Source of the DNA: a virus
Lineage: Duplodnaviria > Caudoviricetes
Virus record (IMG/VR): IMGVR_UViG_3300028888_000125
Coordinates: 5,567-69,566 of that record
Strand: one strand, 5' to 3'
DNA: 64,000 nucleotides
Of the stretch, positions 1 to 62,236 are shown piece after piece. Under the pieces are notes generated by a model that was not told where the DNA came from, made no database searches, and saw nothing but the letters and a program-made list of their open reading frames with translations. Numbering within the stretch: position 1 is the stretch's first letter; each line of letters starts with the position of its first letter. The position numbers and the translations under genes are program-made.

Positions 1-3000
1 AGACGTTCCTCGATGGCGACCGAAACGTCTTCAACCACACGACCAGACGGATCCAGCCACTCGGAAATCTCCCACGGCCATTTGTCGACAAATGACCACC
101 AGGATGTTTCAATATCGAGATTCCAGTTCGGAATGGCGTGATAAACCGTTTCACCTTCTTTTTTGATCAGAATGGCGTAGCCAGAGCTGACACCAAGCAT
201 TGTCTCAAAGTAAATGCGGGCGTTATCGAAAGAGGTTGTTCTCAAGAGACAAGTGGCGAGTCTATTGCCCTGGTAGACAAAGATAGCACCTGTCGGTGTG
301 TCACCTGTCGGATAGACACCGAAAACGGGGTTAGCCGCTTGAGCGTCCGTCACATCCGTGATGTAGACAAGACTGTTTTCAGGTGGATCAGACACCCTGC
401 TCGAGAAAGCCGAAATAGACGCATACTCGCGGGCATTTGTCACGACTTCTCTATAGTGTTTACAGTCATTTAGCGATATTCCCTGAATCTGTCGAGAATC
501 CGCATATGCTTGTAAATCCTCCAAAGAAGCCACTGTCATGAGTTTGATCCATGGGAAACGAGCTCGATTGACTTCTACAATTTTAGCAGGAGTCAACGAG
601 TACTTCGTTGCCAGGTTTGTAACGGTCACATCGCTTTCATCCAGATCCAATTTCTTGAGAGAGGTGAGATCTGTCAGAAGAGCGGAAAGGCGCTCTGTCG
701 TCGGTAGAACGGATGTGAAATCGTAATTGAAGAGAGACCAGTCTCGACGATAGATAGCTCCATTCCCTTCCAGGAACGTATTCTCCGCAGGTCTATCATC
801 CAGAGCACAATCACCAACAAAAATGAATTCACTTCCACGAGCTTCGGGTTCATAGAAGAAAACGCCGTCGTAGAGACTTCCGTTTCTGGAGGCGTTTTGG
901 ACATCTGAGAACGAAGGTACATCCGAATTCAGAATGTAGTCAAGGAGATCGACCGTCTCGATTGTGTATTCTACATCTTGATCGTTCAGGGAAACGACAA
1001 CGGGTGTACTGGTTGTCTCATCAATGACGGTAGATGGTGTCCAGACCAGTTCCTGGATGGTGTCTACATCCGCATCACCTTCTGCTTCAAAGAGAACGGT
1101 ATCGTCTCGTTTGAAGAGCCACTTCTCTGTTTCATCCGAGTAGGAAACCGTATATGAGACAGGGCCTACGGAACGTGACCAAACTCGAGCTCCGTCTGTA
1201 GCAGTCGGATTCACAAGAGTGTAACGACCAAGTAGTTCAGGCATCCCACAAGAGATAACCATGAGCATTCTAGCGACTGTCTTCCATCGATTTGCGTCAG
1301 ACGAACGAGCCGTCGGCGTTGAGACGAGTTCCAGAGTATGGATTGACTCTGCGTTGTCAGAGAACGTCAAGAGCTGATTGAATGTATTTTCAGATGTGGA
1401 TGAGAGAACAACGTCGCCCTTGTGATGGAGATACTCCAACGGAAAGACAAGCTGACCAACCATGGACGGTTTCACCGTCGTACCGTCCACATCATCTTCC
1501 GTATAACGACGGAAGACATCCGTTTGGTACGTAGCGAACACGGTTGTGGGATACTTCTTGTACCCTTCTTCGTTGATCGTGCAGTGGACGTTGTTCAGGA
1601 TGAAGTTCAGGGATTCACCAAAGGTCAACGTCATGCACTGCGACGCCAGCCAGACATAGTCAAGCTGTACTGCCGTCGGACGGTAGCCGACCGGGAACGG
1701 GTCGGAATAGGAATCATACGGCAAAGCTTCTTCACGGATGTAGACCTGGATGCTGAACCCGTCTTCTACACCCTGGAGTGGCAGGTAGCATCCTGCCTTT
1801 TCCGTCACGATATTGTAGAGATTCGTGATGTGAATATTGTCTTCATCATCGATGCGATAATCCGTCTGGAAGTTGAATATGAAATTGATCTTCTGATCGT
1901 CTCCGACCGTACGACCCATATACTCGCCCAGCATGTAAACGGTTTCTCCAGAAGACGCTTTCGTCGTCAGAACAACTTGGATGTTTTTGATGGAGTTGTC
2001 GTCACCCTCTTCCACAAAGACATTCTGAATGTCCTGCGTTCTATAAAGAGTAAGAAGAAGACGATATCCACCTGTCCCATTGTTCAAGTGAGTGAACGTG
2101 GCGGAGTGAACCGAAAGCTGTGTCGCTACGGAATCGTTGTCAGGAGCGATGGATGAAACAGGCGACTTGAACCGAATGTCTCTAACGAACGGGTTCATCA
2201 GATTGTAGGAACCAGCCAGCGGCCATTTGTCGTTCACGGTGAACTTCATGTGGAAGGGGCTGAACGTGTAGACATTCGAGTTAAGACGAGTCAGCTTATC
2301 CTTGACGGGAAGGCTGTCCAATTCTACCATTTCCTGGTCGGAAAGGAGGGTCATCGTGTCTGCGTCCGCATCGTATTTGTAGACAGCGGACGGAAGCACC
2401 ATGAATTCCTTTGGCGAGATGGGAACCTGAGATTGCCTGTAATTCTTCGAAACGAGCTGGCCGTTCTCTTCTACCGTCTGAAGCATGTCCGCTTTGAAGA
2501 CGGTGTCAAACTGTCCCGCACCAATAATAGAGTCCGTGTTGTCTCGAATCGTCTTAAGCGCCAAATAGATACGGTTCGTAATGTTGTCGACATACTTCTT
2601 GGACAGGAATCCCTGGTCTTTGAAATACGCAGCGACGTCCATGGCCGTGATCAAAACGCTGTAGGTTGAATCGTGCAAAATACGATTTCGAAGTTCGTCG
2701 AAGGATAGACCGTTAGAACCCGAAATGATCTTGCGTTCACGAGGCACCGTCACGATGTAAGAAACACGGCGAAGCGGTTCATTGTAGGAATCAAGAATCG
2801 TCATCTGGTCGTCCGCCAGGAATGACGTCTGCAAATCCGTCAACGGTAGAGACGAGATATCCTCATTCATCTCTCCCAACGTACTGTAGACGACCACACG
2901 AACACGGCTACCCATCATACCCTTCGTGAAGTAGATCTGAGGAATACGAATCTCAATCTGATCCATATCCGTCAGAACTTTCACATAGGCCGTCACTTGA

Positions 3001-3845
3001 TCCACGTCGTAGACAAAATCAGATAACGTTTGGTGCATTTCCCGCCATGTACCTTCCATGTAGTGGAAGACACGGACGGCGTAGAAACGATCGGTGTAGC
3101 CGTAACGCTTGGCGAAGCCAGCCGCCGAGACGGCGTCGTCTTCATACGAAACAGCCGTAAACTGATAACAGGGAACGACAATACCGACCAACTCGAGATT
3201 GTCCCGAACCATGTTTCGTACTTCGAGCAAATTCGTATCGATGGTCAGAAGAGGGTTTGCCACATTTGTATTGAACTGAGCACTGAATGAGCAATTTGCC
3301 GCATCGACGACCGTGGAAACGTGTCCCTGGCTGTCCGCTTTTACCTTGTAGACTTTCCGGACAAAGATATCAACAGGATAATGAATACCGAATTGGAACC
3401 GTCCAATCTGGATCTTCGTAGAGGTCGGCAACGTGATCTTTCCAACGGAAACATCCGTCGTCTTTTCCACATCTACGGTCGTGTCGGTGTTAGCATTGAC
3501 TTCGACACAATTATTGATAAGCCAGTTTCGTTCAAAGAAAAGAGTAACCTTTGTCGATGCTGGTGTGCTGTAGAGATGAGCGTAATCGAAATCGCTCATA
3601 TGCCGATACAGAGCGTTCATCGTATTCGCCCTGTACGGATACAGATTGTGAAGAATGTTCTGCGTTTCCGTGGCGTAGCCTGCCGTGATCGTAGCAGCCG
3701 TCTCCATCAGAAATGTGAAGACGTTGTTCGGATCCATGACTTTTCGACCACCAAGAACCGTATTCTGCAAGTCATCCACAATCTGTGACTGGATACGGAG
3801 AGGGTTTGTGAAGAGACCCAGAGTTATTTCTTCTGCTGTAGGCAT
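1..3845 (-). CDS. Large virion structural protein (phiKZ gp87-like baseplate wedge), C-terminus runs off the window (>1280 aa)
   Basis: ATG at 3845 with AGAGGA SD. Reads MPTAEEITLGLFTNPLRIQSQIV...DPNNVFTFLME...LYPYRANTMNALYRHMSDFDY, a phiKZ-type baseplate signature. Sampled stretches stay open to position 3; absence from the ORF track is consistent with no stop inside the window. Confidence 0.75.
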   Translation of the reverse strand, partial: MPTAEEITLGLFTNPLRIQSQIVDDLQNTVLGGRKVMDPNNVFTFLMETAATITAGYATETQNILHNLYPYRANTMNALYRHMSDFDYAHLYSTPASTKVTLFFERNWLINNCVEVNANTDTTVDVEKTTDVSVGKITLPTSTKIQIGRFQFGIHYPVDIFVRKVYKVKADSQGHVSTVVDAANCSFSAQFNTNVANPLLTIDTNLLEVRNMVRDNLELVGIVVPCYQFTAVSYEDDAVSAAGFAKRYGYTDRFYAVRVFHYMEGTWREMHQTLSDFVYDVDQVTAYVKVLTDMDQIEIRIPQIYFTKGMMGSRVRVVVYSTLGEMNEDISSLPLTDLQTSFLADDQMTILDSYNEPLRRVSYIVTVPRERKIISGSNGLSFDELRNRILHDSTYSVLITAMDVAAYFKDQGFLSKKYVDNITNRIYLALKTIRDNTDSIIGAGQFDTVFKADMLQTVEENGQLVSKNYRQSQVPISPKEFMVLPSAVYKYDADADTMTLLSDQEMVELDSLPVKDKLTRLNSNVYTFSPFHMKFTVNDKWPLAGSYNLMNPFVRDIRFKSPVSSIAPDNDSVATQLSVHSATFTHLNNGTGGYRLLLTLYRTQDIQNVFVEEGDDNSIKNIQVVLTTKASSGETVYMLGEYMGRTVGDDQKINFIFNFQTDYRIDDEDNIHITNLYNIVTEKAGCYLPLQGVEDGFSIQVYIREEALPYDSYSDPFPVGYRPTAVQLDYVWLASQCMTLTFGESLNFILNNVHCTINEEGYKKYPTTVFATYQTDVFRRYTEDDVDGTTVKPSMVGQLVFPLEYLHHKGDVVLSSTSENTFNQLLTFSDNAESIHTLELVSTPTARSSDANRWKTVARMLMVISCGMPELLGRYTLVNPTATDGARVWSRSVGPVSYTVSYSDETEKWLFKRDDTVLFEAEGDADVDTIQELVWTPSTVIDETTSTPVVVSLNDQDVEYTIETVDLLDYILNSDVPSFSDVQNASRNGSLYDGVFFYEPEARGSEFIFVGDCALDDRPAENTFLEGNGAIYRRDWSLFNYDFTSVLPTTERLSALLTDLTSLKKLDLDESDVTVTNLATKYSLTPAKIVEVNRARFPWIKLMTVASLEDLQAYADSRQIQGISLNDCKHYREVVTNAREYASISAFSSRVSDPPENSLVYITDVTDAQAANPVFGVYPTGDTPTGAIFVYQGNRLATCLLRTTSFDNARIYFETMLGVSSGYAILIKKEGETVYHAIPNWNLDIETSWWSFVDKWPWEISEWLDPSGRVVEDVSVAIEER

Positions 3846-3860
3846 ACGGGTATTCCTCTT

Positions 3861-5300
3861 TTATGGGTTAACGAAGAACTTCCGATACATGCTGTCGAAA
3901 GTCTCTTCCATTTGAATCTGATTCGGATAGTAGTAATCTCGTGCAAAGTCGTTGGCGCTACGGCGTGTTCGCAGACCAAAGTCCAGATCCATCAGGGAAT
4001 TGATGAATTGCTTGGTGGCATCGTCACGCAGGGTTGGAACTTCAACTTGTCTCCATTCCATTCGGAAACCGTTTGGATCGGACGTAATCCAGGGAAGCGC
4101 CGTGAAGTTTGCGAATTTGTCGAAATACGGGACTCGCCGATGCAACAGTTCCGGAGCACGGCCGTTGGACTTGTTTGGAGACGCGGAGGTGCCGTTCTTC
4201 GACTGATTGATCGTGGGGCAATAGCGTTCTACGAGTCGGTTGAAGTCATAGAGAATGGGGTATTTGTCATACTCAATCACGTTGCAGGTGAACGGAACCG
4301 AGATGTGCTTTGCCGCTTCAATGGAGTAATCACCTTGTTGTTTATTGAATATTCCGCCAATCGGGATGACCGACGGAAAGCACCCTGTACATTTGACATA
4401 GTGACGAATATACGGTGTACCTGGCTCCATAACAAAACTGTAGATGGAGACGGTGTAATTCATCCGAAGGGTGTCGATATCGTCCGCATAGGCGCGCATG
4501 ACGTTATACCGAACATTGTGAATATAGCGTACCCAGTAGTTGATGATAGAGAGAATAGGTCCACCCTGAACATCCTTGAACGTGAGATTCAACGTGTAGT
4601 TTCCTCTAGCCCCCATGACATCGTCCGCATCAACGACAGATTGGGCTTCTCCGAAGTAACCGCCATCCGTCGAGCCAACAGACAATGACAAATCGGGGAA
4701 ACCCGAGATATTCTCATACGAGTTCATCAACGGGACAAAGAAAGCGTTCTGCGGATCGTGGATAGGACAGTTATTGACCAAGTTCCAATAAGGGTTCTCT
4801 TCTGCACGGCCAATCTTGACTTTATGTAGGTTCGTATCCAAAAGAGCCCGAATAGCAAACGCCGTGGAGTTGACATTTGTTGTATCCAGTGGAACCATAG
4901 CTGGATCAGCACGCAAATTCGAAGATTGTAAACAAAGTCTTGGACGGGAGAAGAACGTCAGACCGTGTACCTGGTGGTTTGTCGGAAGTGGACAGGAATG
5001 AAGACGATCGATTGCCGAGAAGAATTCCTGTTGCTGGTTGAAGTATCCGCCCAAACCTTTGCTACGCCAGATAAGGTCTTGAATCATCTCCTGTTGAACT
5101 TTGTTGAGATACTGGTCCGGATTCTCACTTGCGAAACGAATCCGCTGGAGTGTCTTCTCTACGACTTCGGGTTCCTTGAGAATCGTATCCAGACTGGCAG
5201 ACGTGTATTCTTCAGGCACAAATGTTTTGAAATAATCCAGGAGTTCGGAGTCACTGTAGTGTTCTCCTCGGTCCATGAAATTAGGGGTGGATTGGGTCAT
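3861..5300 (-). CDS. Virion structural protein (phiKZ gp88-like baseplate/tube-initiator family)
   Basis: 479 aa ORF with SD GGAGG. Motifs GLTFFSRPRLCL and NYTVSIYSFVME...TGCFP resemble tail-tube-like folds. Synteny with the adjacent wedge gene. Confidence 0.65.
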   Translation of the reverse strand: MTQSTPNFMDRGEHYSDSELLDYFKTFVPEEYTSASLDTILKEPEVVEKTLQRIRFASENPDQYLNKVQQEMIQDLIWRSKGLGGYFNQQQEFFSAIDRLHSCPLPTNHQVHGLTFFSRPRLCLQSSNLRADPAMVPLDTTNVNSTAFAIRALLDTNLHKVKIGRAEENPYWNLVNNCPIHDPQNAFFVPLMNSYENISGFPDLSLSVGSTDGGYFGEAQSVVDADDVMGARGNYTLNLTFKDVQGGPILSIINYWVRYIHNVRYNVMRAYADDIDTLRMNYTVSIYSFVMEPGTPYIRHYVKCTGCFPSVIPIGGIFNKQQGDYSIEAAKHISVPFTCNVIEYDKYPILYDFNRLVERYCPTINQSKNGTSASPNKSNGRAPELLHRRVPYFDKFANFTALPWITSDPNGFRMEWRQVEVPTLRDDATKQFINSLMDLDFGLRTRRSANDFARDYYYPNQIQMEETFDSMYRKFFVNP

Positions 5301-37159: not shown

Positions 37160-39625
37160 ATGGCAAAAGAGTACGATGAATCTTCGATTCGGACCATGGA
37201 GCCGTTGGAGTACATTCGTCACCGAATGGGACTCTACCTGGACTCCAAGGATGTCTCCGCAGACACCCAGATTCTCAAGGAGTTGATTGATAACTCTTGT
37301 GACGAGTCTCTTGATCCAAAGAAACTCTATCACATTAAAGTCGTTATCTTCACGAACGATAATAAAACGTATCAGGCGGCGGTTATTGACCACGGTCGTG
37401 GTGTTCCGCTTAAGAAGCTGAAAGATGCTTATACGAATACTCAGACCTCTGGTAAGTTCTTCTACGATTACGGTGGAGCGACTACCGGTAGCTACGGTCT
37501 TGGTTCAAAAGTGACTGTCGCGTTGTCGACGCATTTCTTGGCATATTCGAAACGTGCGGATGGTTTTGCCTATTTGAAAGTGAAAGACCAGCACGTGGTG
37601 GACAATAAGGTTCTATCACCTCTCGACAAAGATGATTCGACGATTGGTACGACGGCATTCTACGTTCCCGATCCAACGGTTCTTCCCGAAACACGATCGT
37701 ATTTGTCCGATCCAAATGGTCTGGCCAAGACCATTGACACGTTGAACTTCATGGCGGCTATCAAACCGAACACGATTTTCACGGTCTACAAAGTCAACAC
37801 ACTTCTGGATCAGACATTCTTCGACAAATCTCCGATTGCTCAGTGGAAATATTTCCGTGATGTGACGGGAGAGGTGATCTATCAGAGCCCGTCGGATTTC
37901 AGTGTTGAAAAATACGTGATGACTCGGTTCGGTATTACGTGCCAAAAACCCGAATGGAGTCTGCATCTAAAGAACTCTGTTCGTAAAGAAGCTCAGACCC
38001 TTGAGTACGATATCCATCTCTTCGTATCAGATGGCAAGCGAAAGCAAACGGGACTGCTCGGTTCCGTCAATACCGTTTTGATTCAAACATCCGAATCCTA
38101 TCACTTCTCGGTTCTACGGGAAGTCCTGAAGAAACGGATTGCTCCGTATTTGGATGACACCGATGCTGATCTGATGGCATACTTTAGTACGACGTATGAT
38201 TTTCCCTTCTACGGGCATGTGGTTATCAGTTTCCTGGGTGCTGAGTATGTGACACAGACTAAGTCAATTTTCAAGGATCCTGCATTTGCAAGCATCTACA
38301 AGCACGACTTGAACAAACTGATTGACCAATCCGTTCCTGATGAAGTCTGGGGTCGTCTCTATGCGGCGATTGCAGACGATCTGAACGAACGATTCATCCA
38401 GGCGAACAACCGTGCTTTGAAGTTGACAGCAGGTCTCAAGAACATCGCCTATGACATGTCGAATCCCGACTGTTACACGCCGTGTCGCTCAAAGGATCCA
38501 ACCAAGACGGAACTGTTCATCACAGAAGGAAACTCCGCTGGTAATTCCGTCCGAAAAAATCGAGACGCCAATTACCAGGCCGTTTTCAGATTGCGTGGTA
38601 AGCCGATCAATCCGTTGACGGCATCCGCTGCAGAGCTCAAGGTGAACCGTGTCTATCAGGATCTCGTGCGTCTTATCGGTGTTTCTCCCAGAGATACGGA
38701 TTTGTCCCACATGAACTTCAATCGTATCGGTCTCCTAGCTGACGCTGATCCGGATGGTTACCACATCGTGGCTCTCCTTATCGGAACGCTCATGAAGATC
38801 AATCCGAGAATCATCATGTCAGGCCGAGTCTTCGTGGTCAATCCGCCATTGTACATTATCACGAACAAGTCGAACAATATCTTCATTCGTGATGCGAACG
38901 CTCTTCTGGATATTCGCTCGTCCATCTATCAGCGTATGCTGAAGATATCGGCGTATTATCCGTATACAAAGACATTCCATCAGCTCAACAAGAACGAATA
39001 TCGAGATCTTGTCTATTTCGTCAGACGGTATAGTGCTATCATGATGAATGTCTCGAAGCACCTGAACGTCGAGCCGCTCGTTATTGAAAAGCTGATTGAC
39101 TGCCTGCCCTACATGGAGCCAGGCAATATCAAGACGGAAGCTATCAAGAAGCATCTGAACTTGATGGATTGCCGGTATAACCAGACGTTGAACTCTCTCA
39201 TGCTCATCTTTGATGGTGGCGTTGAGAAGTCTGTTCAGCTCAATCGATTCAAGCCCGAAGTGGAAGCGTATGTCAAGCCCATGCTGGAGCGTTTTGGCTG
39301 GAGGCACTTTGTCTTAATCGCATCGTCCATCCTCTCTGGAGAAATCGACGAACGTCCTGTTTCGTTCATGATGTTGGATGATATTTTCAATGAAATTGAT
39401 CGGGTGTTCCCGATTCATCGATTTAAGGGTCTAGGTGAGTATTCCAACGAACAGCTTGAGAATACTTGTATCAATCCAATTACACGTTCAATATCAGTTG
39501 TGAAGGATATAGGCGATGTTCAATCTATCTATCAATGCCTGGGCGTGGATACGTCATATCGTAAGAGTCTGGTTAAAAAACAGCTACGGGATTTATTCCG
39601 AGAAGTTGATTCTGAAGCCGTCTGA
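37160..39625 (+). CDS. gyrB: Type II topoisomerase B subunit (GyrB/ParE-like) with TOPRIM insertion
   Basis: GHKL motifs ELIDNS.DE, DHGRGVP and GSYGLGS. TOPRIM motifs ITEGNSA, LRGKPIN, DADPDG and RFKGLGE. Confidence 0.9.
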   Translation: MAKEYDESSIRTMEPLEYIRHRMGLYLDSKDVSADTQILKELIDNSCDESLDPKKLYHIKVVIFTNDNKTYQAAVIDHGRGVPLKKLKDAYTNTQTSGKFFYDYGGATTGSYGLGSKVTVALSTHFLAYSKRADGFAYLKVKDQHVVDNKVLSPLDKDDSTIGTTAFYVPDPTVLPETRSYLSDPNGLAKTIDTLNFMAAIKPNTIFTVYKVNTLLDQTFFDKSPIAQWKYFRDVTGEVIYQSPSDFSVEKYVMTRFGITCQKPEWSLHLKNSVRKEAQTLEYDIHLFVSDGKRKQTGLLGSVNTVLIQTSESYHFSVLREVLKKRIAPYLDDTDADLMAYFSTTYDFPFYGHVVISFLGAEYVTQTKSIFKDPAFASIYKHDLNKLIDQSVPDEVWGRLYAAIADDLNERFIQANNRALKLTAGLKNIAYDMSNPDCYTPCRSKDPTKTELFITEGNSAGNSVRKNRDANYQAVFRLRGKPINPLTASAAELKVNRVYQDLVRLIGVSPRDTDLSHMNFNRIGLLADADPDGYHIVALLIGTLMKINPRIIMSGRVFVVNPPLYIITNKSNNIFIRDANALLDIRSSIYQRMLKISAYYPYTKTFHQLNKNEYRDLVYFVRRYSAIMMNVSKHLNVEPLVIEKLIDCLPYMEPGNIKTEAIKKHLNLMDCRYNQTLNSLMLIFDGGVEKSVQLNRFKPEVEAYVKPMLERFGWRHFVLIASSILSGEIDERPVSFMMLDDIFNEIDRVFPIHRFKGLGEYSNEQLENTCINPITRSISVVKDIGDVQSIYQCLGVDTSYRKSLVKKQLRDLFREVDSEAV

Positions 39626-40465: not shown

Positions 40466-41038
40466 ATGGAAGAGGAAACGAAGAAATCACCCATCCCGAT
40501 CGTTTCCAGTCGAATCGTAACACCGATTCAATCGACTGACCAGGACGACGGGGCACTGGATTATGAACCCTTGAAACGGGAGGGTCAGCTTATTTTCACG
40601 CAGGAGGATGTCAACAACAGTATTTCTCCTCTGGATCATTTGCTGCGCTCTCTCTTTGTCAAGATGGGCGTCACGGATGCCTATTTCAACGCACGTCATC
40701 GGCAGTATGCAAACGACTTGCAGATGGACTTCCAAACGGCGACGAATGCGAAGAATAACTTGATGAAAGCTCTACGTAAAGGCGGTATCACATTCAGTCG
40801 TTTCATTGAAGCGCTGGTCAATGTGCTGCACCTTGTCATTCGAGATATCCGTTGGGAAGTTGTGGATGAGGCTGGTGAGGTCAAGATCATTGATCTGACG
40901 CACGGCTATGTCACCAAGGCGGAAGCGGATGAGATGGATCGGAAACGGGAAGAACAAAAGAAGAAACCTCTTACTCTCGATCCAACGATTATCAAGCTTC
41001 CAGAACATATCGAACTGGACGATGTTGTCAACTTGTAA
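40466..41038 (+). CDS. Hypothetical protein
   Basis: 190 aa, coupled to the upstream gene. Confidence 0.6.
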   Translation: MEEETKKSPIPIVSSRIVTPIQSTDQDDGALDYEPLKREGQLIFTQEDVNNSISPLDHLLRSLFVKMGVTDAYFNARHRQYANDLQMDFQTATNAKNNLMKALRKGGITFSRFIEALVNVLHLVIRDIRWEVVDEAGEVKIIDLTHGYVTKAEADEMDRKREEQKKKPLTLDPTIIKLPEHIELDDVVNL

Positions 41039-41096: not shown

Positions 41097-41759
41097 ATGA
41101 ACGTTTGCATTCAAATTCAGGAGAGTAGTTACTTCGAGAAATTCCCGGAAACGGACAAGATTGTCCAGTGTTTCAATCCTGATAACAAGAAGTGTATCAT
41201 TCCACTTTGCAATCTACAATCTTGGCAAAGTATCCGAAACAAGGATGTCCTGCAGGATGTGAAGACGAAAGTTCGTACGATTATTATTCGTGGCAATGTT
41301 AATGCCCTCAATGCACATGACGTGCAGTTGTTTTCTACGAAGCTGATGCATGAGTTCCCGAAGATTATCGACTGGACGACAGAAGGAAAAGGTTGCTTGA
41401 ACAGCTCTTGTCTTTCAGTGCAGCAGTTCAAAGCGGTTCTTTATCACGAGCCGATCATGTGTCTGCGGGAGATTACATATTTGGATTGTCATGTTGCCTA
41501 TGACAATGTGGGAAGAATGGTTGGAACAAAATGGGAGTGGATGGTTCGAGATTTGGCAGACGAGAAGTGGCCTCTTCGTTCCGAAGAAGAGTTGAAAATG
41601 GTTCCGACATCGAACAAGCAGGCACAGGAGGAATATGAGAGAATGCGCGAGTCGTGGCTGATGCGTTTGTTGGACACCTACGGAATACAGTCTCTTCGGA
41701 AGACGTTGGTTGTGTGGCCGGGATGGGAACTATATGCTAAGAAAGTAGATATGAAATAG
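41097..41759 (+). CDS. Hypothetical protein immediately upstream of the cassette array
   Basis: ATG 41097 after AGGAGG; 220 aa; no recognisable recombinase motif. Confidence 0.6.
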   Translation: MNVCIQIQESSYFEKFPETDKIVQCFNPDNKKCIIPLCNLQSWQSIRNKDVLQDVKTKVRTIIIRGNVNALNAHDVQLFSTKLMHEFPKIIDWTTEGKGCLNSSCLSVQQFKAVLYHEPIMCLREITYLDCHVAYDNVGRMVGTKWEWMVRDLADEKWPLRSEEELKMVPTSNKQAQEEYERMRESWLMRLLDTYGIQSLRKTLVVWPGWELYAKKVDMK

Positions 41760-41766
41760 AGGTTAG

Positions 41767-41806
41767 ACGTGGTAGACAGTAATGTCTACCACGTTTTTAT
41801 TTTTTT
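41767..41806 (+). terminator. Intrinsic terminator insulating the cassette array
   Basis: 12-bp stem ACGTGGTAGACA-GTAA-TGTCTACCACGT followed by a long T tract. Confidence 0.85.
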
Positions 41807-42759
41807 GGACGCCATCTACTTTTCTTGATGTAGATATCAAACTATCTCCATTCGGGGTAACCATTATCTTTGTAGTTCCTACACTTCCACTATTACCGGT
41901 AGTTATGGACCTATATACATTAGAGTAGCTGATACATCAGGACATCTGACAACAGGTAATACGGCTGGATCTACATCATCTGGCGTCCCTTGGACGCCAT
42001 CATCAATCCCTTGAGCTGAATGACGATTATATCCTCCTTGTACATTAACGTAAACAACTAGACTTCGTCCATTCGATCCTGTTTCAGCACTACCGGTAGT
42101 ACCTCTTACGCTGTACAGCAAATCACTCAGAGTGGTGGTTTCAGTGTTCGATACAACATAAGTTCCATCGATGGCGTCCTTTCAAGGGACGCCATTTTCT
42201 GTCAGATCTGCGTTTGTTCGATTGATCGTTAGAACACCTAAATTATTTGGTGCATACACTCTCCATTGATTAGTACTACCGGTGGTGGATCTGCTGTACT
42301 TATGTATAGAGTTGTTTCTCTAAGTACAAACGGAGAACACAACAGTCCTATGATACCTAGTTATGATTATGGCGTCCTATGGACGCCAAGATTGGAGACA
42401 GGCCTGACATTATTGTAGGGTATACCTCCAGATGGAGTAATATGATACAGAAAAATAGAACTACCGGTGAGCAATATCAAGGTGCTGGTCGCGTCAAGTA
42501 TGTTAGAACAAATGCGATATATGACTACGGTATACCTTTTACAGATAGTTATGGCGTCCACGGGACGCCATAGAGATAGTTCACAGACGAGAACGTTGCG
42601 TTCTCTCCAGCAGGAGTTGCAGAATGAACGTTAATCTTTAATGGAGCATAATTCTGACTTTGATTACCGGTAGTGATCAATCGACCTGGCGTCTCTATGC
42701 GGCTACAATTAATACATCGATTTCACCGTCGGCACAACCCAAGTCTCTCTATGGCGTCC
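41807..42759. repeat. Array of ten silent in-frame variable cassettes in alternating orientation, bounded by ACCGGT and TGGCGTCC sites
   Basis: ACCGGT at 41895, 42092, 42278, 42463, 42666. TGGCGTCC at 41981, 42172, 42370, 42552, 42752. GGACGCCA at 41807, 41992, 42187, 42381, 42563. All ten ACC-to-GGC distances are multiples of 3 and stop-free. Confidence 0.92.
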
Positions 42760-42824: not shown

Positions 42825-44249
42825 ATGCTGACTCATATGGCACAGATCTCCGAGACCCTGACCCACCTCATCAATCCTATCGCAGAGCAGGCCTGTCGGA
42901 AGATCCTCGACCAGCTCGCCCTTTCTGATGTCGTCGGACCCATGTTCCAGATGGTCTCGGACATTCGAGCTTCCTCCAAGTCCTGGGAAAGGCGTTTTAA
43001 ACCAAAGGTCAAATCCGAAACGTCTTTTAAAGGCGTCATTAAGTACAATCCTGTTTCTACAGGACTCAAGTACGATGTCTCCCTCCCTGGTCAGCACATG
43101 GATGCCCAGCTCATGCGCTCGGACACCTTTGTGACAAATCCTCTCTTCTTTGACCCGACACACAACATTGTTCTCTTCGAACGGTTCCACCCAGCCAACA
43201 TTCAGGTAGACTGTTCCTTGACGTTCATCGATCGCGTGCAAGGTTACGACGCCATTAACCGTTTTCATTCTCTCTTCAATCGCGGAGAGTATTTTCAACT
43301 TCAGGACTTCACGACAAACTATCCGTTACCGCCAGAACATCTTGTCGCTCTCAACAAATTAGCTAAGTTGGCTGGCATTGAAAAAGGCTGTTTTGGACAA
43401 TGGCTAACCGCCTGTTCGAAAGATCGTATCACGTGGGAGGCATCCAAGCGTCTCCGTAATAGGACTTACGAAGTCGTTGTCAAATATGATACGTTTGAGG
43501 CGATGGTTTACATCGACTACACTCCTGAAGCTCTACAGATCGATTCTCCTGGAAAGGCCCCGCAGAATCTTGTGCTGAACTTCCAGTTGACGATTCAGTT
43601 CTCCCGCCCTGACCGAATCTACATGCGCTATCCGATTGTCATTCACAATCAGCTCATCCCTGATTCTCTCATCACGTCGGATCGTAGAGATGCCTACAAT
43701 GACACGTATGACGTTTTGCACCATCGTTTCAAGGGAATTGACGAGGCGCACCAGATGTTCAAGGAGCACGCTCGGAAACCGAAACGTCTTCCCTGGTACG
43801 ATGACTGGCTTGTTCCTCGTTTCTCTTCGTTCCATGAAGAGGGTGCGGAGGCGTTTCTTATCGGAGTCGTCCTGCAGGACACGGAACCTGTCATGACAGG
43901 TAAACTAGAAGACCCGAAACCTCCAGAGTACACGACTGTTGATCTGACATCCGACATTGATAATTATTATCTTTCCACAGATGTCGTCGCTTATTTTGAG
44001 AAGAATCTACGGGATTGCCTAAAGCCAGAAGCTCTCTACAATATAGGGGTTTATATCGGTGACCGTCAGGTATCTCCTAACTGTCTCAAGTTTGACGGAC
44101 ATGTCCTCTCGATTCCTAATTCAATTTTTGACCATGACAAGATCTGTCGTCTCGTCCTTTCTCGCACACCGCCAAGAGCCGAGGGTAATAACCCCTGGTT
44201 CTTTGTGTTAAAATGTGTTATTGAGGTCGGAGACGTTGGACGTAAATAA
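42825..44249 (+). CDS. phiKZ-like virion structural protein (baseplate/tail region)
   Basis: 474 aa, SD AAGGAGG; FSRPDRIYMRYPIVIHNQLIP motif. Confidence 0.55.
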   Translation: MLTHMAQISETLTHLINPIAEQACRKILDQLALSDVVGPMFQMVSDIRASSKSWERRFKPKVKSETSFKGVIKYNPVSTGLKYDVSLPGQHMDAQLMRSDTFVTNPLFFDPTHNIVLFERFHPANIQVDCSLTFIDRVQGYDAINRFHSLFNRGEYFQLQDFTTNYPLPPEHLVALNKLAKLAGIEKGCFGQWLTACSKDRITWEASKRLRNRTYEVVVKYDTFEAMVYIDYTPEALQIDSPGKAPQNLVLNFQLTIQFSRPDRIYMRYPIVIHNQLIPDSLITSDRRDAYNDTYDVLHHRFKGIDEAHQMFKEHARKPKRLPWYDDWLVPRFSSFHEEGAEAFLIGVVLQDTEPVMTGKLEDPKPPEYTTVDLTSDIDNYYLSTDVVAYFEKNLRDCLKPEALYNIGVYIGDRQVSPNCLKFDGHVLSIPNSIFDHDKICRLVLSRTPPRAEGNNPWFFVLKCVIEVGDVGRK

Positions 44250-54663: not shown

Positions 54664-55296
54664 ATGGATACGGAATACGCATACCGAGTAGACCAGCTCT
54701 CTTCAAAGTTTCTGCAGGGAAAACGTCAACAGCACAATGCCGTTGCTAGTCAGATTCTAGCAGTCTTGAAGATCGAGTCTTACAGACGAAACACGATTAC
54801 ACTGTCCGAATTCTCCAAGTATCTTCCTATTTTCGATACGAAACTAGTTAGTAAGATGAGCTACGAGGATTCCGTCTATCTGGGGCAGGAGTGGGCAAGT
54901 CGCATTGATCCGTACGAGGAAGTCCGAATCGTTGAGTACGAGGACTCCAAGGAACCTCTCTTTGTTCTCCCAGCTCTCTACACACGAGTTCCTTCCGTCA
55001 ATATGGCTGGCGCTGCCGGTCTTTATGCTGAGGAGGCTCTTACCAAAAATGTTGCAAACGATTCTCCGATATCGACAGATGCTGAACGATGCACTCGTCG
55101 ATATGCTGACATACTCGATAGGGTTCGACATATTGTTCGGCCGTACTACGAAGCTAGGCAGAATCAATATGCCAAAACGATGGATGATTTGAAAAAGAAA
55201 AATATCCTGTCATCGAATGAAATTCCTACAAAGAAAGAACAGGCGCCCGAACAGGCGGAATCATCCAATCTTGAACTTATCGAAGAACCCTTATGA
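54664..55296 (+). CDS. Conserved hypothetical protein
   Basis: 210 aa, SD GAGGTG. Confidence 0.6.
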   Translation: MDTEYAYRVDQLSSKFLQGKRQQHNAVASQILAVLKIESYRRNTITLSEFSKYLPIFDTKLVSKMSYEDSVYLGQEWASRIDPYEEVRIVEYEDSKEPLFVLPALYTRVPSVNMAGAAGLYAEEALTKNVANDSPISTDAERCTRRYADILDRVRHIVRPYYEARQNQYAKTMDDLKKKNILSSNEIPTKKEQAPEQAESSNLELIEEPL

Positions 55297-56408
55297 GAAA
55301 CAAAGTCGTCTTCATTACGGATATTCATCTGGGACGTGATCCCATCAGTCCATGGCGTGTATTAGAACACTTAGAACGTTATCTATATCCAGTGTTAGCA
55401 GGTGTTGACGAAGATCCGCCCTCTCTTCTCCTTTTCGGGGGAGACTTCTTCGACCGACTTTTGGACTTGAACCAGGATGCGGGTCGTATCGCCGTCACGA
55501 TTGTCGATCACGTTGTAGAATTGGCTGTCAAACACGGATTCTTTGTCCGTGTCCTAGCGGGAACGTTCTCGCACGATCGTTTTCAGAACAAGCTTTTCAA
55601 CTACGGAAAGATACCCGATCTGAAACGGGACGATACTCAGATTGTCCGTGTCTTTGAGGAACGAGGAATTGAGTACATCAAGCCACTCAATCTCCACATC
55701 CTCTATTCACCTGATAATCAGAATGTAGACGACTTGACGGAAGCCGTATTGAAGACACTTTCAGATGCGAATCTCGACCATGCGGATATTCTCGCATCTC
55801 ATACGTATTTCGATCATCTCTACAAGAACCAACGGGAAATCCATCAACCGAGCAAGCAGATTGTTTCCCAAGCAGTCCGTAAGAAATTCACGGTAATCCT
55901 TAACGGTCACATTCATGTCAAGTCTATCGTTCGGAATATCGTGACAGGTGGGTCGTTCGAACGATTCTGTCACGCCGAGGAAGCTCCGAAAGGTTTCCAC
56001 ATTATCACCCTGAATGATGATAAGCTGGAGAAGATCGAGTTCCGTGAGAACTACGATACAGACCTCTTCAATACATACGAAATCACAGATGACAACAATG
56101 ACGCAGTCCTTGATCAAATTGAGGCGGATATCGTCGCTAGCCAGAAGAACGACCGTCCCATTCATATTCGTCTTGTCGGTGAATACGAATCCGCTCGTGT
56201 TTACCTGAAAGAGAAATATCCGACCATCGACGTAGCCGTAAAATCAACGGGCGCCCTGACCAGAGGCGACGATCCGTATGTAGAATCCATTATCGATGAT
56301 TTACCCACGTTGACCCCCGCAAACATCGTATCCTTTATTGTCGATGAAGTCCATCAGAAACTCACCAGGGAAGAAATAGAGGAAATGCTCCATGCCAGTA
56401 CCAAGTAG
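55293..56408 (+). CDS. sbcD: SbcD/Mre11-like metallophosphoesterase nuclease
   Basis: ITDIHLG, FGGDFFD, AGTFSHD, ASHTY and NGHIH motifs. Confidence 0.82.
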   Translation: MRNKVVFITDIHLGRDPISPWRVLEHLERYLYPVLAGVDEDPPSLLLFGGDFFDRLLDLNQDAGRIAVTIVDHVVELAVKHGFFVRVLAGTFSHDRFQNKLFNYGKIPDLKRDDTQIVRVFEERGIEYIKPLNLHILYSPDNQNVDDLTEAVLKTLSDANLDHADILASHTYFDHLYKNQREIHQPSKQIVSQAVRKKFTVILNGHIHVKSIVRNIVTGGSFERFCHAEEAPKGFHIITLNDDKLEKIEFRENYDTDLFNTYEITDDNNDAVLDQIEADIVASQKNDRPIHIRLVGEYESARVYLKEKYPTIDVAVKSTGALTRGDDPYVESIIDDLPTLTPANIVSFIVDEVHQKLTREEIEEMLHASTK

Positions 56409-58235: not shown

Positions 58236-58682
58236 ATGTCATACAACCGTGTAATCAACATACCAGAGTATATTCCATTCTACACGATCCGTAAGAAGAA
58301 CACCGTTGTCTGGGGAACCATGGGTGTTGGCATCAACATGAATATCTGGCTTCCAAGATACCATCAGGATCATCACAATCTGGTGACACTCATTCGATTT
58401 GTCGTAGGTCCGATGATATGGGAGAAGTATTTCCCCATTCCTGAGTTTTACTCGTTTGACACCTTGTATTTCCTATACAAACGCCAGCAGGAAATTGACA
58501 AAATCGTCGACAAGGATGGTAACCCTGGCGGAGTCGACACGCTCATTAAGTACTCTAAATCTTATATGGTGGCAGAAATTAAAACCCCTGTAATTCAACC
58601 AGGTGAGCTTTCACGTGGAGCAGGTATATTGATGGACACCATATCGAAGTCTTCACCCACATCATTAGGAGAATTTGTATGA
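58236..58682 (+). CDS. Hypothetical protein
   Basis: ATG 58236 after GGAGG; 148 aa; stop overlaps the nrdD start. Confidence 0.6.
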   Translation: MSYNRVINIPEYIPFYTIRKKNTVVWGTMGVGINMNIWLPRYHQDHHNLVTLIRFVVGPMIWEKYFPIPEFYSFDTLYFLYKRQQEIDKIVDKDGNPGGVDTLIKYSKSYMVAEIKTPVIQPGELSRGAGILMDTISKSSPTSLGEFV

Positions 58683-61600
58683 CAAGTTTTAAGAAACGTA
58701 ATGGTACGATTGTTCCGTTCAATATTGGAAAAGTCGTCGCTGCGATTGATGGAGCTATTCGGGACATTGCTATTTCTGGTTATCCTGCTCAGTATAACAG
58801 TCAGGAGCTGGCGACAGCCGTTCGAAACGAAGTGACACCACAGGAATCGGATACGATTACCTACGAATCCATTATGGCAGCATTACACAAAGTGTTGGGT
58901 CCGTATCCTGAACTGCACGCTGCCTACTTCAATTATGCGGAGAAACGAGACAAAGTCCGCAAGTGTATCACCGTTGTGGATAAGTCTGGTAAACAGAATT
59001 CGAAAGTTGACGTAACCGACAAATCACTGTTGCTGGTCAATACAGGTGCATCTGCAGATGTGGCTGGCTGGGATCGTTCCAAGATCGAGAACAAGCTCCG
59101 TACGGTCTTTCCCGATATGCCCGAAGTCGACGTGATTACCATTGCAAAACGTGCGGAAAACCGTGTCGTCCTCGGAAAGTTTACACAGATTACTACGGCG
59201 ATCATTCGGGAAATCGTGAACAACGAACTTGAAATCCACAATTATCCCAAACTTCCCGCAAACAAGATGTATGCCATCTCGAAGGAACATCTGGATGAGA
59301 TCCTTCTCCAGAAGTCCGTTGAGAATTCCAATGTTTCCGCCAACACACCTGAAACGGTGAATGAGAACATCGCCGAGTACATTCTGAAGAACTATGCCCT
59401 CGACAACATTTTCTCACCGGAAGTGGCGGAGGCCCACAATTCGGGTCGTATCCACATCCACGACCTGGGATTTGCTCCCACTCGTGTCTACTGCAGTGCC
59501 CACTCCATCGAGTATATCAAGAAGTACGGCCTCAAGGGTTTCGAGAACCTGAACACGGAATCGAAGCCTGCTCGTAGCGCTTCTGTTTTGACGTCCCATC
59601 TGAACACCTTCCTGGCGTCGATGCAGGCGAACTACGCTGGCGCTCTTGGTCTTGCCTATATCAACACTCTCTATGCTCCGTATATCGTCGGACTGGATGA
59701 GAAAGAAGTCCATCAGATTGCACAAGAGCTTATTTTCAATGCGTCACAGAACGCCTTTTCCCGTGGTAGTCAGACGATCTTCACGGACTTCAACATCGAC
59801 CCCGGTGTTCCGTCCATGCTGAAGGACACACCTGCTATCCATCCTGGCGGTGTCTACAAGATTTTGGTTCCGGATGAAAATGGTGTCGCCGAACCGCGTA
59901 TCATGCATGAGCGTGAATATGCTAAGGAAGGTCCTGGTGGATATCCACTCTACGAGTACTTCTACAAAACGATTGATGGCCCAGATGTTGTTGTTCGTCG
60001 GGAGTGCTACGATGAAAAGAGCGGTTTCCACTACGATGCCGAACTGGAAGAGAAGACAAAAGAAGCGGGTTGTCACATCGTCACGTACGGTGATTTCGTT
60101 TACGAGTCATCCAGGATGTGCTCGGCCCTCATTCGTGTCTTCAAGGAAGGCGACGCCAATGGCAAACAGTTCTTCTTCCCGAAGTGCCAGTTTCACGTCA
60201 GTGAAGAAATGTTCAAGGATGAAGGCAAAATGCGTCTCTACAGAGAGGCGTGCGACCTGGCCGCCCATAACGGCAGCACCTATTTTGTCTTCGACCGTAG
60301 CGCTGTCACTCTGTCGGCTTGCTGCCGTCTGTTGACGACGATTGACGATACCTCGCTTTTGAAGCATCCTGAACGTCTTCGTTTTTCTTTCCCAGGAAAC
60401 GAGTCAATTGTTGTTCGTGGAAAGGACAAAGTCGAAAAAGTCATGTCCTTCAAACAACTCTTTGAGATCGCCGCCAACGGGAACACCCTTTCTGTTGAAG
60501 AAGGAAACGAGATCTACTACACGGATGATTTCGAACTCCTCGACAATGGAAAATGGGTCAAGATGTCCCGTGTTTTGCGTCATAAGAAAGTAGACGACGG
60601 TTCCCGTAACTTGATTGCTTTCCAGACACGTGACGGTCGTATGAAAACCATGACGGCGAACCATCCTGTGTTCCTGAATGACATGGAAGGATTGTTCGAT
60701 GCTCGTCGCGTCGGTCCTGGCGTCTCTTTCAAATATGTGGGTGAGTTCTACGATCCTACGACAGCTACGATGTCTCTTTCTGATGAAGAGATGGCGATTG
60801 AATCCCAGAACATCAAAGCGAGTTTTGAAGAGGATCGCTACAACTTCACCTTCTCGTCTATTCTCTTGCATTACGATTGGGAAACGTTCATCCGTATCTT
60901 TAATGCATTCTGTCATATTCCTGGTATTGCGAAGTTTGATCCTACGTGCCAGATGATTCAGCTCATCTGCACATCCAAGACGGCGCTCGATCAAATCCAG
61001 ATGGTTCTCATGAAAAATCGTCGTGTCTCCTCGATGCGCGTGGCCCAGGTTCGCATGGGCCAGATTCGCGAGCATGGCAGAATGGCATACTGTCTCATCA
61101 TTCCAAACGTCATTGCAACCGTGAACGCAGATGGTTCGTATTACGTCAACGACTTTGAGAAGATTGAATCTTCCAAACCTCTTCACTACGATAACTTCAT
61201 CCATGACACGGAGGAGTTCCGTGATGATGAGGAAGAGTGGGTCTATGACGTCACGACAGAATCCCATACGTTCGTTGCCAACGGGTTCCATCTCCACAAC
61301 TGTGGTTTCGCCAACACAACGACGTCTCTACCGCACGCCGCCTACTTGACGAAGATGCAGGTTGAAAAAGATCCGTCTCTCAACGTCGAGGAAGTCTTCC
61401 TGAAGGAAGTCGACCGTTCGATGGATCTTTCTGTTCAATCCCACATGGAGAAGAAGACTCACATCGCTCAGATGATGGCTGGTCCCGGCCGTCCTCTATG
61501 GCAGGTCGGTAAAATCGCCTGCGATGGTCAGCCTTACATCAATCTTGACAAATGCACCTACATTCTCGGTATCATTGGTCTCAACGAAGCGGTCAAGGTC

Positions 61601-62236
61601 CTCTACGGAAAGGAACTCCATGAGTCCGACGAGATGCAGGACAAGGGTCTCCGGATCATCGCTCATATGAATCTCCGTCTCAAGGAGTACACTGAGAAGT
61701 ATCACCTCAAGTTCTCGATCGAAGAGACGCCTGCGGAAAGCGCGGCTCGTCGCTTTGCCCGTGCAGACTTGATTCGGCTTCCAGACTACGCCAAGGGAAT
61801 TGTCAAAGGTGCTGAAGACGCGGAGTACTACACGAATTCGATTCACTTGACGGCAGATGCTCCTGTTGTCCTGGTGGAGAGAATTCGCAAGCAATCCATG
61901 TATCATCCGATGATCGCCTCTGGCGCCATTATCCATGCGTTCATTGGAGAGGAGCAACCGAGTGCAGGTGCCATTGAAGAGATCGTTACGTTGACGTTCT
62001 TCCGTACCCAGTGTGCCCAGTTGACGTTCTCACCTAACTACACCTATTGCAACGTCTGCAAACGTCGTTCCATCGGACTCCATGACGTGTGTCCTTACTG
62101 CGGTTCTGAGGATACGGATCAAGTGACCCGTGTTGTCGGATACTTCTCGAAGATCAAGTCGTGGAACAAGTCCAAACGGTTCGGTGAACTGGTTGCCCGG
62201 GGTCGTGGCAACTATGCGGTTCAGAGTGCAGACTGA
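58679..62236 (+). CDS. nrdD: Anaerobic (class III) ribonucleoside-triphosphate reductase with two ATP-cone-like domains and an intein
   Basis: IHIHDL, finger loop SACCRL, EETPAES, zinc site CNVC...CPYC and glycyl-radical motif RVVGYF. Confidence 0.93.
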   Translation: MTSFKKRNGTIVPFNIGKVVAAIDGAIRDIAISGYPAQYNSQELATAVRNEVTPQESDTITYESIMAALHKVLGPYPELHAAYFNYAEKRDKVRKCITVVDKSGKQNSKVDVTDKSLLLVNTGASADVAGWDRSKIENKLRTVFPDMPEVDVITIAKRAENRVVLGKFTQITTAIIREIVNNELEIHNYPKLPANKMYAISKEHLDEILLQKSVENSNVSANTPETVNENIAEYILKNYALDNIFSPEVAEAHNSGRIHIHDLGFAPTRVYCSAHSIEYIKKYGLKGFENLNTESKPARSASVLTSHLNTFLASMQANYAGALGLAYINTLYAPYIVGLDEKEVHQIAQELIFNASQNAFSRGSQTIFTDFNIDPGVPSMLKDTPAIHPGGVYKILVPDENGVAEPRIMHEREYAKEGPGGYPLYEYFYKTIDGPDVVVRRECYDEKSGFHYDAELEEKTKEAGCHIVTYGDFVYESSRMCSALIRVFKEGDANGKQFFFPKCQFHVSEEMFKDEGKMRLYREACDLAAHNGSTYFVFDRSAVTLSACCRLLTTIDDTSLLKHPERLRFSFPGNESIVVRGKDKVEKVMSFKQLFEIAANGNTLSVEEGNEIYYTDDFELLDNGKWVKMSRVLRHKKVDDGSRNLIAFQTRDGRMKTMTANHPVFLNDMEGLFDARRVGPGVSFKYVGEFYDPTTATMSLSDEEMAIESQNIKASFEEDRYNFTFSSILLHYDWETFIRIFNAFCHIPGIAKFDPTCQMIQLICTSKTALDQIQMVLMKNRRVSSMRVAQVRMGQIREHGRMAYCLIIPNVIATVNADGSYYVNDFEKIESSKPLHYDNFIHDTEEFRDDEEEWVYDVTTESHTFVANGFHLHNCGFANTTTSLPHAAYLTKMQVEKDPSLNVEEVFLKEVDRSMDLSVQSHMEKKTHIAQMMAGPGRPLWQVGKIACDGQPYINLDKCTYILGIIGLNEAVKVLYGKELHESDEMQDKGLRIIAHMNLRLKEYTEKYHLKFSIEETPAESAARRFARADLIRLPDYAKGIVKGAEDAEYYTNSIHLTADAPVVLVERIRKQSMYHPMIASGAIIHAFIGEEQPSAGAIEEIVTLTFFRTQCAQLTFSPNYTYCNVCKRRSIGLHDVCPYCGSEDTDQVTRVVGYFSKIKSWNKSKRFGELVARGRGNYAVQSAD
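60386..61300 (+). mobile_element. Intein in NrdD (305 aa, Ser1...His-Asn, +1 Cys) with degenerate homing-endonuclease remnant
   Basis: Starts SFPGNESIVV, block B MTANHPVF, block F/G WVYDVTTESHTFVANGFHLHN|C. Removal restores RLRF-CGFAN. Confidence 0.88.

Follow-up and report, generated by a model that had tools for sequence, protein, structure and literature searches.

Phages vary their receptor-binding proteins by single-site inversion (Gin, Cin and Min) or by DGR mutagenesis. In the R64 shufflon (Rci/sfx), p15B Min, Mu Gin and P1 Cin, some of which are phage-borne, one site type is used to exchange the whole C-terminal part of a protein, the invertase is encoded next to the cassettes, as is the constant part of the gene, and receptor-binding specificity is changed. 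DGRs, which are common in phages, use one template repeat, a reverse transcriptase and adenine-specific changes, and their variable region ends in the GC-rich IMH, which is followed by a hairpin. Borrelia vls and Neisseria pilS consist of short promoterless, start-less donors for defined variable regions of a single expressed gene; these donors may lie far from the expression site, and they are transferred as segments with the frame kept. The donor cassettes of tprK also form a gene-conversion donor library (PMC8480903), and libraries of this type are the closest to the locus described here in their layout of detached donors.

The closest systems in logic are the phase-variable hsdS loci, for which surveys are available (PMC7672463, PMC9881135) and in which start-less inverted segments undergo successive inversions with the frame kept, and internal or terminal parts are exchanged. 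In the Spn556II/ivr hsdS locus of S. pneumoniae, the repeats IR1 (15 bp), IR2 (298 bp) and IR3 (85 bp) lie inside coding sequence, and the 15-bp class alone depends on the local tyrosine recombinase PsrA (PMC4948785). Multiple-inversion switches of phages and plasmids are also mentioned in one of the surveys (PMC9881135). As far as the literature was searched, no virus has been described in which whole alternative loops are stored as a library with two junction sites.

The stretch of DNA analyzed here (the window) is 64 kb long and comprises bases 5567-69566 of a 69.5 kb IMG/VR virus record, for which CheckV gives a completeness of 26%. The record encodes beta pieces of a phage multisubunit RNA polymerase, the large subunit of topoisomerase II, a DNA polymerase, a GroEL-like chaperonin, an NrdD-like reductase, an SbcD/Mre11-like nuclease and head-tail structural proteins, and in GenBank it is closest to jumbo phages infecting Erwinia, Cronobacter and Klebsiella, with protein identities of approximately 23-27%. 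This gene content, together with the distant jumbo-phage relatives, indicates that the record is part of the genome, roughly 270 kb in size, of a novel jumbo phage. The NrdD-like match is limited to residues of about 902-1167 of a 1185-aa ORF (58679-62236) and does not extend to its long N-terminal part. The SbcD/Mre11-like protein (55293-56408; phrog_100, E 1e-20) resembles a subunit of a palindrome- or hairpin-cutting nuclease and belongs to the general phage recombination machinery, and it could act on the hairpin-forming junctions described below. Regarding the relatives used for comparison, the record named G003 (IMGVR_UViG_3300045988_163688, 361,040 bp) gave matches at mirror-image coordinates on opposite strands, such as 43047-43367 (+) and 317674-317994 (-), whose coordinates sum to 361,041. 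This record therefore has the appearance of an inverted dimer, with units of about 180 kb joined head to head, and not of a 361-kb genome.

The array occupies positions 41807-42759 of the window, in the gap between two genes: on its left, the upstream gene ends in an intrinsic terminator (41765-41806), and on its right comes the ribosome-binding site that serves the following gene (ATG at 42825). It consists of ten cassettes of 91-112 nt in strictly alternating orientation, and neighboring cassettes meet either head to head or tail to tail, as follows.

41765-41806, plus strand: intrinsic terminator of the upstream gene, directly abutting the array; 14-bp stem and T-run
41807-41903, minus strand: cassette wL1, 32 codons, TTGN...DGV; left end of the array formed by its tail half-site, GGACGCCA (41807-41814)
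41892-41988, plus strand: cassette wR1, ITGS...SGV; open frame from head to tail
41992-42100, minus strand: cassette wL2, 36 codons, TTGS...DGV; open frame from head to tail
42089-42179, plus strand: cassette wR2, 30 codons, TTGS...DGV; open frame from head to tail
42187-42286, minus strand: cassette wL3, TTGS...NGV; open frame from head to tail
42275-42377, plus strand: cassette wR3, TTGG...YGV; open frame from head to tail
42381-42471, minus strand: cassette wL4, LTGS...LGV; open frame from head to tail
42460-42559, plus strand: cassette wR4, TTGE...YGV; open frame from head to tail
42563-42674, minus strand: cassette wL5, 37 codons, TTGN...YGV; open frame from head to tail
42663-42759, plus strand: cassette wR5, ITGS...YGV; right end of the array formed by its tail half-site, TGGCGTCC (42752-42759)
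41892-41903, no strand: head-to-head site 1, ATTACCGGTAGT, with the core ACCGGT at 41895-41900
42089-42100, no strand: head-to-head site 2, ACTACCGGTAGT, a perfect 12-nt palindrome
42275-42286, no strand: head-to-head site 3, ACTACCGGTGGT, core ACCGGT
42460-42471, no strand: head-to-head site 4, ACTACCGGTGAG, core ACCGGT
42663-42674, no strand: head-to-head site 5, ATTACCGGTAGT, core ACCGGT
41981-41999, no strand: tail-to-tail junction 1, TGGCGTCC-CTT-GGACGCCA, DNA hairpin of -9.1 kcal/mol
42172-42194, no strand: tail-to-tail junction 2, TGGCGTCC-TTTCAAG-GGACGCCA, DNA hairpin of -11 kcal/mol
42370-42388, no strand: tail-to-tail junction 3, TGGCGTCC-TAT-GGACGCCA, DNA hairpin of -9.5 kcal/mol
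42552-42570, no strand: tail-to-tail junction 4, TGGCGTCC-ACG-GGACGCCA, DNA hairpin of -10.8 kcal/mol

The lengths of the ten cassettes (97, 97, 109, 91, 100, 103, 91, 100, 112 and 97 nt) are all 1 mod 3, and every one of them is open solely in one frame, in which the head encodes T-G and the tail G-V. One unit (42379-42573; antisense wL4 plus wR4) also forms a 64-aa ATG-initiated ORF, which is probably due to chance because the other units have no such ORF and it is absent from the protein collection searched.

An earlier sequence-only reading of this DNA had proposed two types of site and single half-sites at the array ends (41807 and 42752), and both proposals agree with the present analysis: ACCGGT is found at the heads, TGGCGTCC-N3/N7-GGACGCCA at the tails, and the window array ends in a tail half-site on both sides, without a head end. 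The details of the sites required revision. The head consensus given there, A(C/T)T-ACCGGT-(A/G)GT, is a perfect palindrome at 42089-42100 as stated, but only ACCGGT is invariant, and the ACT and AGT beside it are frequent, not fixed, codons. Likewise, the spacers CTT, TTTCAAG, TAT and ACG reported for the tail palindrome are present, but the tail is made of two 8-nt half-sites at variable spacing (3-7 nt in the window and 3-19 nt in the second array described below), and therefore the conserved unit is the half-site or the hairpin stem. All 10 copies of GGACGCCA in the 64 kb window are in the array (expected, 1.7; none of 100 shuffles reached 10), and TACCGGTRG occurs 7 times in the window against an expectation of 0.24. 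As DNA, the tail junctions of both arrays form hairpins with energies of -9 to -17.6 kcal/mol; no fold was obtained for the head palindrome. Outside the array, the window has a single near-match to the head palindrome, ACTACCGGTAGC (37481-37492), which agrees with it at 11 of 12 positions and codes for the TTGS of the ATPase motif in the topoisomerase II large subunit. As a recipient head site this match was rejected, as it is not accompanied by a tail site, and we regard it as a chance match. The number of 11-of-12 matches expected by chance in the record is approximately 0.03.

A strict pattern scan of the JGI metagenomes gave a single further locus, L142 (bases 1-4356 of the 28.3 kb contig Ga0247609_10001435), in which 12 cassettes at 718-1843 have the same cores, ACCGGT and TGGCGTCC, lengths of 1 mod 3, and an open frame in the same phase. 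The interiors of these cassettes are unrelated to those of the window and have diverged to near-randomness. The L142 flanks have no protein or DNA similarity to the 69.5 kb record, and the left flanks of the two arrays have nothing in common beyond the half-site. The tail spacers of L142 measure 3, 13, 3, 5 and 15 nt, and the one at the left end 19 nt; the 15- and 19-nt spacers (1735-1749 and 699-717) are themselves self-complementary and lengthen the hairpin to 13 bp. The strict alternation claimed in the sequence-only reading holds for all ten cassettes of the window and has one exception in L142, a deletion scar, ACCGGTAGGACGCCA, at 1165-1180, which is the sole break of alternation; L142 also contains a composite cassette with an internal ACCGGT at 1578. 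One end of the L142 array is a head site, located 4 nt past the stop codon of a minus-strand 120-aa gene and reading GTG ACC GGT, and the terminal half-site is part of a terminator-like hairpin. The 120-aa gene is a complete member of phrog_3455 and is out of frame with the cassette, and the GTG has no ribosome-binding site. Since phrog_3455 is present in all four distant jumbo relatives that were found in IMG/VR, L142 probably derives from a phage of the same broad group as that of the window. The neighboring genes in L142 gave no Pfam match.

We pooled the cassettes of the two arrays (10 from the window and 12 from L142, n = 22) and determined their coding properties. The distance from ACCGGT to TGGCGTCC keeps one frame in all 22 cassettes (p ~1e-10), and frame 0 is open in all 22 (chance by shuffling, ~1e-19), compared with 1-8 of the 22 for the other frames. 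Frame 0 was also the best of the six frames by codon log-likelihood. The core codons ACC, GGT, GGC and GTC, the preceding third-position T and the following C are fixed in 22 of 22. In the cassette interiors, ACC accounts for 6 of 57 Thr codons (10%), GGC for 1 of 61 Gly codons (2%) and GTC for 3 of 35 Val codons (9%); for the other fixed core letters, interior usage is 44% (GGT) and 41% (third-position T). The rarity of ACC, GGC and GTC in the interiors indicates that both motifs are kept as nucleic-acid sites read in a fixed frame, beyond amino-acid constraint.

The encoded peptides have a common pattern, xTG followed by 3-11 residues, an alternating hydrophobic strand, an (N/S/D)G turn, approximately 12 residues and GV, and the residues G, S, T, N and Y are each enriched about twofold. 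An HMM built from the cassettes scored every cassette at 18-33 bits and the rest of the record at 11 bits or lower. The cassettes have no family match; a profile search against PDB pointed weakly (3-5 bits per repeat) to PQQ-type beta-propeller blades, whose strand-turn the repeats resemble; this may serve as a faint lead on shape, not as homology. GC3 of the cassettes (41815-42750 and L142) is 0.26-0.275, compared with 0.555 in the phage genes, and their overall GC is 0.40 compared with 0.477; low GC3 combined with an open frame fits sequence that is seldom translated yet kept open. There is no start codon or ribosome-binding site at the cassette heads, and no consistent stop codon after GV, where 1 to more than 50 codons follow. 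In the five cases where the tail has no short spacer, it continues as TGGCGTCCA(G/A), that is, with CA(G/A) encoding Gln, which suggests that these letters reflect the downstream codon of a recipient gene.

The two ORFs to the left of the array had been put forward in the sequence-only reading as candidates for dedicated machinery, which the comparison with relatives did not bear out. ORF 40466-41038 has homologues at the same position in relatives that have no array, and none beside L142. ORF 41097-41759, directly upstream of the array, encodes a 220-aa ORFan; a search of 1.84 billion representatives gave just two clusters of homologues (51% and 38% identity), and this ORF too has no homologue beside L142. 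In the relative G001 a non-homologous 215-aa gene takes the place of the 220-aa gene. Homologues of the 190-aa and 474-aa genes are found in the same order in G001 and G003, with one gene between them, and in G001 the 474-aa homologue is preceded by approximately 100 nt of intergenic DNA with a terminator hairpin and no array. At the spot corresponding to L142, the phrog_3455 gene of G001, the one relative for which the downstream flank was read, is followed by a terminator hairpin only, and a hairpin scan at this spot in two more relatives showed no array. As the relatives have only a terminator hairpin at the syntenic spots, both arrays are insertions at different terminator-side intergenic spots. 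This pattern fits a site- or hairpin-directed process, not descent from a local gene.

It seems to us about an even chance that the array is a silent store of versions of one beta-hairpin, which would be joined into a recipient gene by two in-frame joins. The stored unit would be a beta-hairpin of approximately 30 residues (xTG, strand, (N/S/D)G turn, strand, GV), in which G, S, T, N and Y abound as they do in binding loops, and the recipient would be a phage protein encoded outside the 26% of the genome present on the record. One join would take place at the 6-bp palindrome ACCGGT, read as Thr-Gly, and the other at (A)TGGCGTCC, read as Gly-Val and then usually Gln; the recipient should contain ACCGGT, 66-96 nt and TGGCGTCC in frame, probably followed by CAG. 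The fixed phase of the tail is the strongest available support for a second in-frame junction, i.e. for replacement of an internal segment, because a fusion at the head only would leave the phase of the tail free, and it is fixed in 22 of 22 cassettes. A tail that has to be read as G-V and has no regular stop codon behind it is likewise as predicted for such a junction. That exchange at both sites swaps the internal loop had been suggested in the sequence-only reading; the two in-frame site types speak for it, but no exchange was observed, and we infer both the existence of a recipient and the occurrence of exchange. Because 6 and 8 bp would be too short for ordinary homologous recombination, a site-directed enzyme or short GC-rich annealing anchors would be used, and we know of no well-characterized recombinase site that is as short as this.

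Two routes, about equally likely, may be considered for such a donor library. By paired inversions, first at tail sites and then at head sites, an expressed and a stored segment would be swapped, with the intervening DNA restored and the alternation preserved, and flipping a unit between its two tail sites would expose its other member; on reasoning, the alternation, the inverted tail sites and the symmetric head site would be formally sufficient for swapping by inversion only. Alternatively, a non-reciprocal copy would pass from the donor to the expression site, being primed at one anchor and resolved at the other.

Several observations weigh against a donor library. No recipient, recombinase, reverse transcriptase or alternative arrangement was found in the searched data; an expressed gene and a recombinase are not adjacent, unlike in the known inversion switches; and the cores are only 6 and 8 bp, with a symmetric head site that would also permit deletions. 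The searches were as follows. By six-frame regex and HMM, no other ACCGGT...TGGCGTCC segment was found in the 69.5 kb record (26% of the genome), which excludes a recipient from the 47 kb upstream and the 21 kb downstream of the array, and no cassette-like segment was found in the complete relatives G001, G003 and G004. The 4.4 kb of L142 has no recipient gene with both sites. At the stringency of the strict pattern, no recipient was found in IMG/VR, the JGI metagenomes or the GTDB genomes, where the DNA pattern scans gave, apart from L142, single chance matches or REP-like hairpins. Protein searches with cassette profiles gave no match, the small ORFs of the array are absent from a collection of 15 billion proteins, and ESM Atlas has no match for the 220-aa ORF or a cassette. 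The window ORFs neighboring the array have no Pfam match. PF00589, PF00239 and PF00078 have no match in the 69.5 kb record (26% of the genome); the statements of the sequence-only reading that recombinase and recipient are not in view, and that no tyrosine or serine recombinase motif is nearby, thus extend to the whole record. No rearranged copy of the array was found in the collections searched.

It is also possible, though we think it unlikely, that the array is a by-product or fossil, in which segments excised from the variable gene at both motifs were joined like to like into an archive that no longer serves, or never served, as a donor. Joining like with like would by itself yield the alternation, the precise palindromic head joint and the variable tail spacers, and the GC3 far below that of expressed genes, the deletion scar ACCGGTAGGACGCCA and the composite cassette with its internal ACCGGT in L142, and the location of the arrays at different intergenic, terminator-side spots in two phages are in accordance with it. 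However, 22 frames are intact and both cores are invariant despite near-random interiors, which argues for continuing selection on the coding capacity and on the sites.

A shufflon exchanging C-terminal parts is improbable. There, the head would be the sole crossover, fused to a constant upstream part or a start codon, and the tail hairpins would end the unit. The L142 head end, 4 nt after the stop of the 120-aa gene and with GTG ACC GGT as a possible coupled start, and the strength of the tail hairpins would suit this arrangement, but a tail core in frame in 22 of 22 cassettes is needless for a mere terminator, and the 1 to more than 50 codons after GV show no consistent stop. Furthermore, the 120-aa gene is a complete phrog_3455 member, out of frame and with a GTG that lacks a ribosome-binding site, this gene is followed in relatives by a terminator only, and neither end of the window array is a head site, both being tail half-sites.

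Non-coding palindromic repeats, either BIME/REP-like or a protein-binding array for partition, packaging or regulation, would account for alternating conserved palindromes, an intergenic terminator-side position and hairpin-forming junctions, with spacers that are only seemingly coding. As an RNA element, the array has no Rfam match and no strong fold, the z of -2.6 for one unit being due mainly to the terminal stem; the evidence is thus neutral as to RNA. We consider non-coding repeats very improbable, as the lengths of 22 of 22 cassettes fall in one frame class, 22 of 22 are open in one frame only, and the cassettes have a common strand-turn-strand peptide pattern and a loop-like composition. 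Finally, although both arrays come from metagenome assemblies, the chaining of population variants of a hypervariable gene region by the assembler can practically be dismissed, since the shared motifs of 6-12 bp are far below assembler k-mers, the array is flanked by a well-formed terminator on one side and a ribosome-binding site for the following gene on the other, the same architecture with other cassettes was assembled independently in another sample, and the flank proteins of 474 and 220 aa are letter-for-letter identical on a second contig (Logan/ENA, 269,795 bp).

Taken as a donor library, the array can be compared with the systems introduced above. As in hsdS loci, two classes of inverted repeat, here the two cores, lie inside coding sequence. 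An hsdS locus, however, contains the expressed gene and the recombinase and exchanges domains of 150-200 aa, whereas the cassettes are of approximately 30 codons and neither gene is adjacent; hsdS segments are target-recognition domains located by hsdM/hsdR, whereas these are hairpins without a family match, and their neighbors are phage genes. The packing of 10-12 segments with shared 6- and 8-bp sites and the carrier, a lytic-type jumbo phage, also differ. With the shufflon, Min, Gin and Cin, the array has in common clustered cassettes in both orientations and inverted sites inside coding sequence at a fixed frame (22 of 22). Unlike them, it has no recombinase (PF00589 or PF00239) at either locus, the record covering 26% of the genome, and no adjoining constant part: the window array ends in tail half-sites, and the gene abutting the L142 array is complete and out of frame.

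Promoterless, start-less, in-frame segments with common borders are found here as in tprK, vls and pilS, but those libraries are bacterial and have no strict alternation, shared palindromic junctions or paired invariant GC-rich cores. Like a DGR, the array has a variable region resembling a binding loop, a short GC-rich 3′ border and a GC-rich hairpin nearby; unlike a DGR, it has 22 unrelated stored cassettes, and the record has no PF00078. It does not qualify as an integron, as PF00589 is absent and the cassettes are gene fragments in alternating orientation, compared with the gene cassettes of integrons with attC in the same orientation. BIME/REP elements share the alternating, hairpin-forming sites and the intergenic terminator-side positions, but they have non-coding linkers, in contrast to intervals that are open, in frame and common in peptide pattern. 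The pdif modules are bounded by inverted sites and contain whole genes, whereas the intervals of the array are in-frame gene fragments. In total, the array departs from hsdS loci, inversion switches and conversion libraries in five respects, namely that it is carried by a lytic-type jumbo phage, that its units have only approximately 30 codons, that its cores measure 6 and 8 bp, that its sites are shared in strict packing, and that it is detached from recipient and enzyme alike.

These comparisons place the array with cassette-based protein diversification, and there is a serious possibility that novel machinery is involved. More tentatively, and in our estimate doubtful, it may belong to an undescribed programmed diversification system of lytic jumbo phages, in which a compact library of alternating orientation would supply replacements for one surface hairpin of a virion protein or other binding protein. 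Two minimal DNA signals, the 6-bp palindrome and the 8-bp hairpin half-site, would direct the replacement, and the enzyme would belong neither to the classical tyrosine and serine recombinases nor to the reverse transcriptases. Such an enzyme might be, for example, a nuclease that is directed to hairpins or palindromes and acts together with phage recombination, and the record encodes a nuclease of the SbcD/Mre11 type. If active, the system would represent a third route to the switching of host range or target, operating through very short, portable DNA signals, and its carriers would be jumbo phages of the nucleus-forming type from anaerobic habitats.
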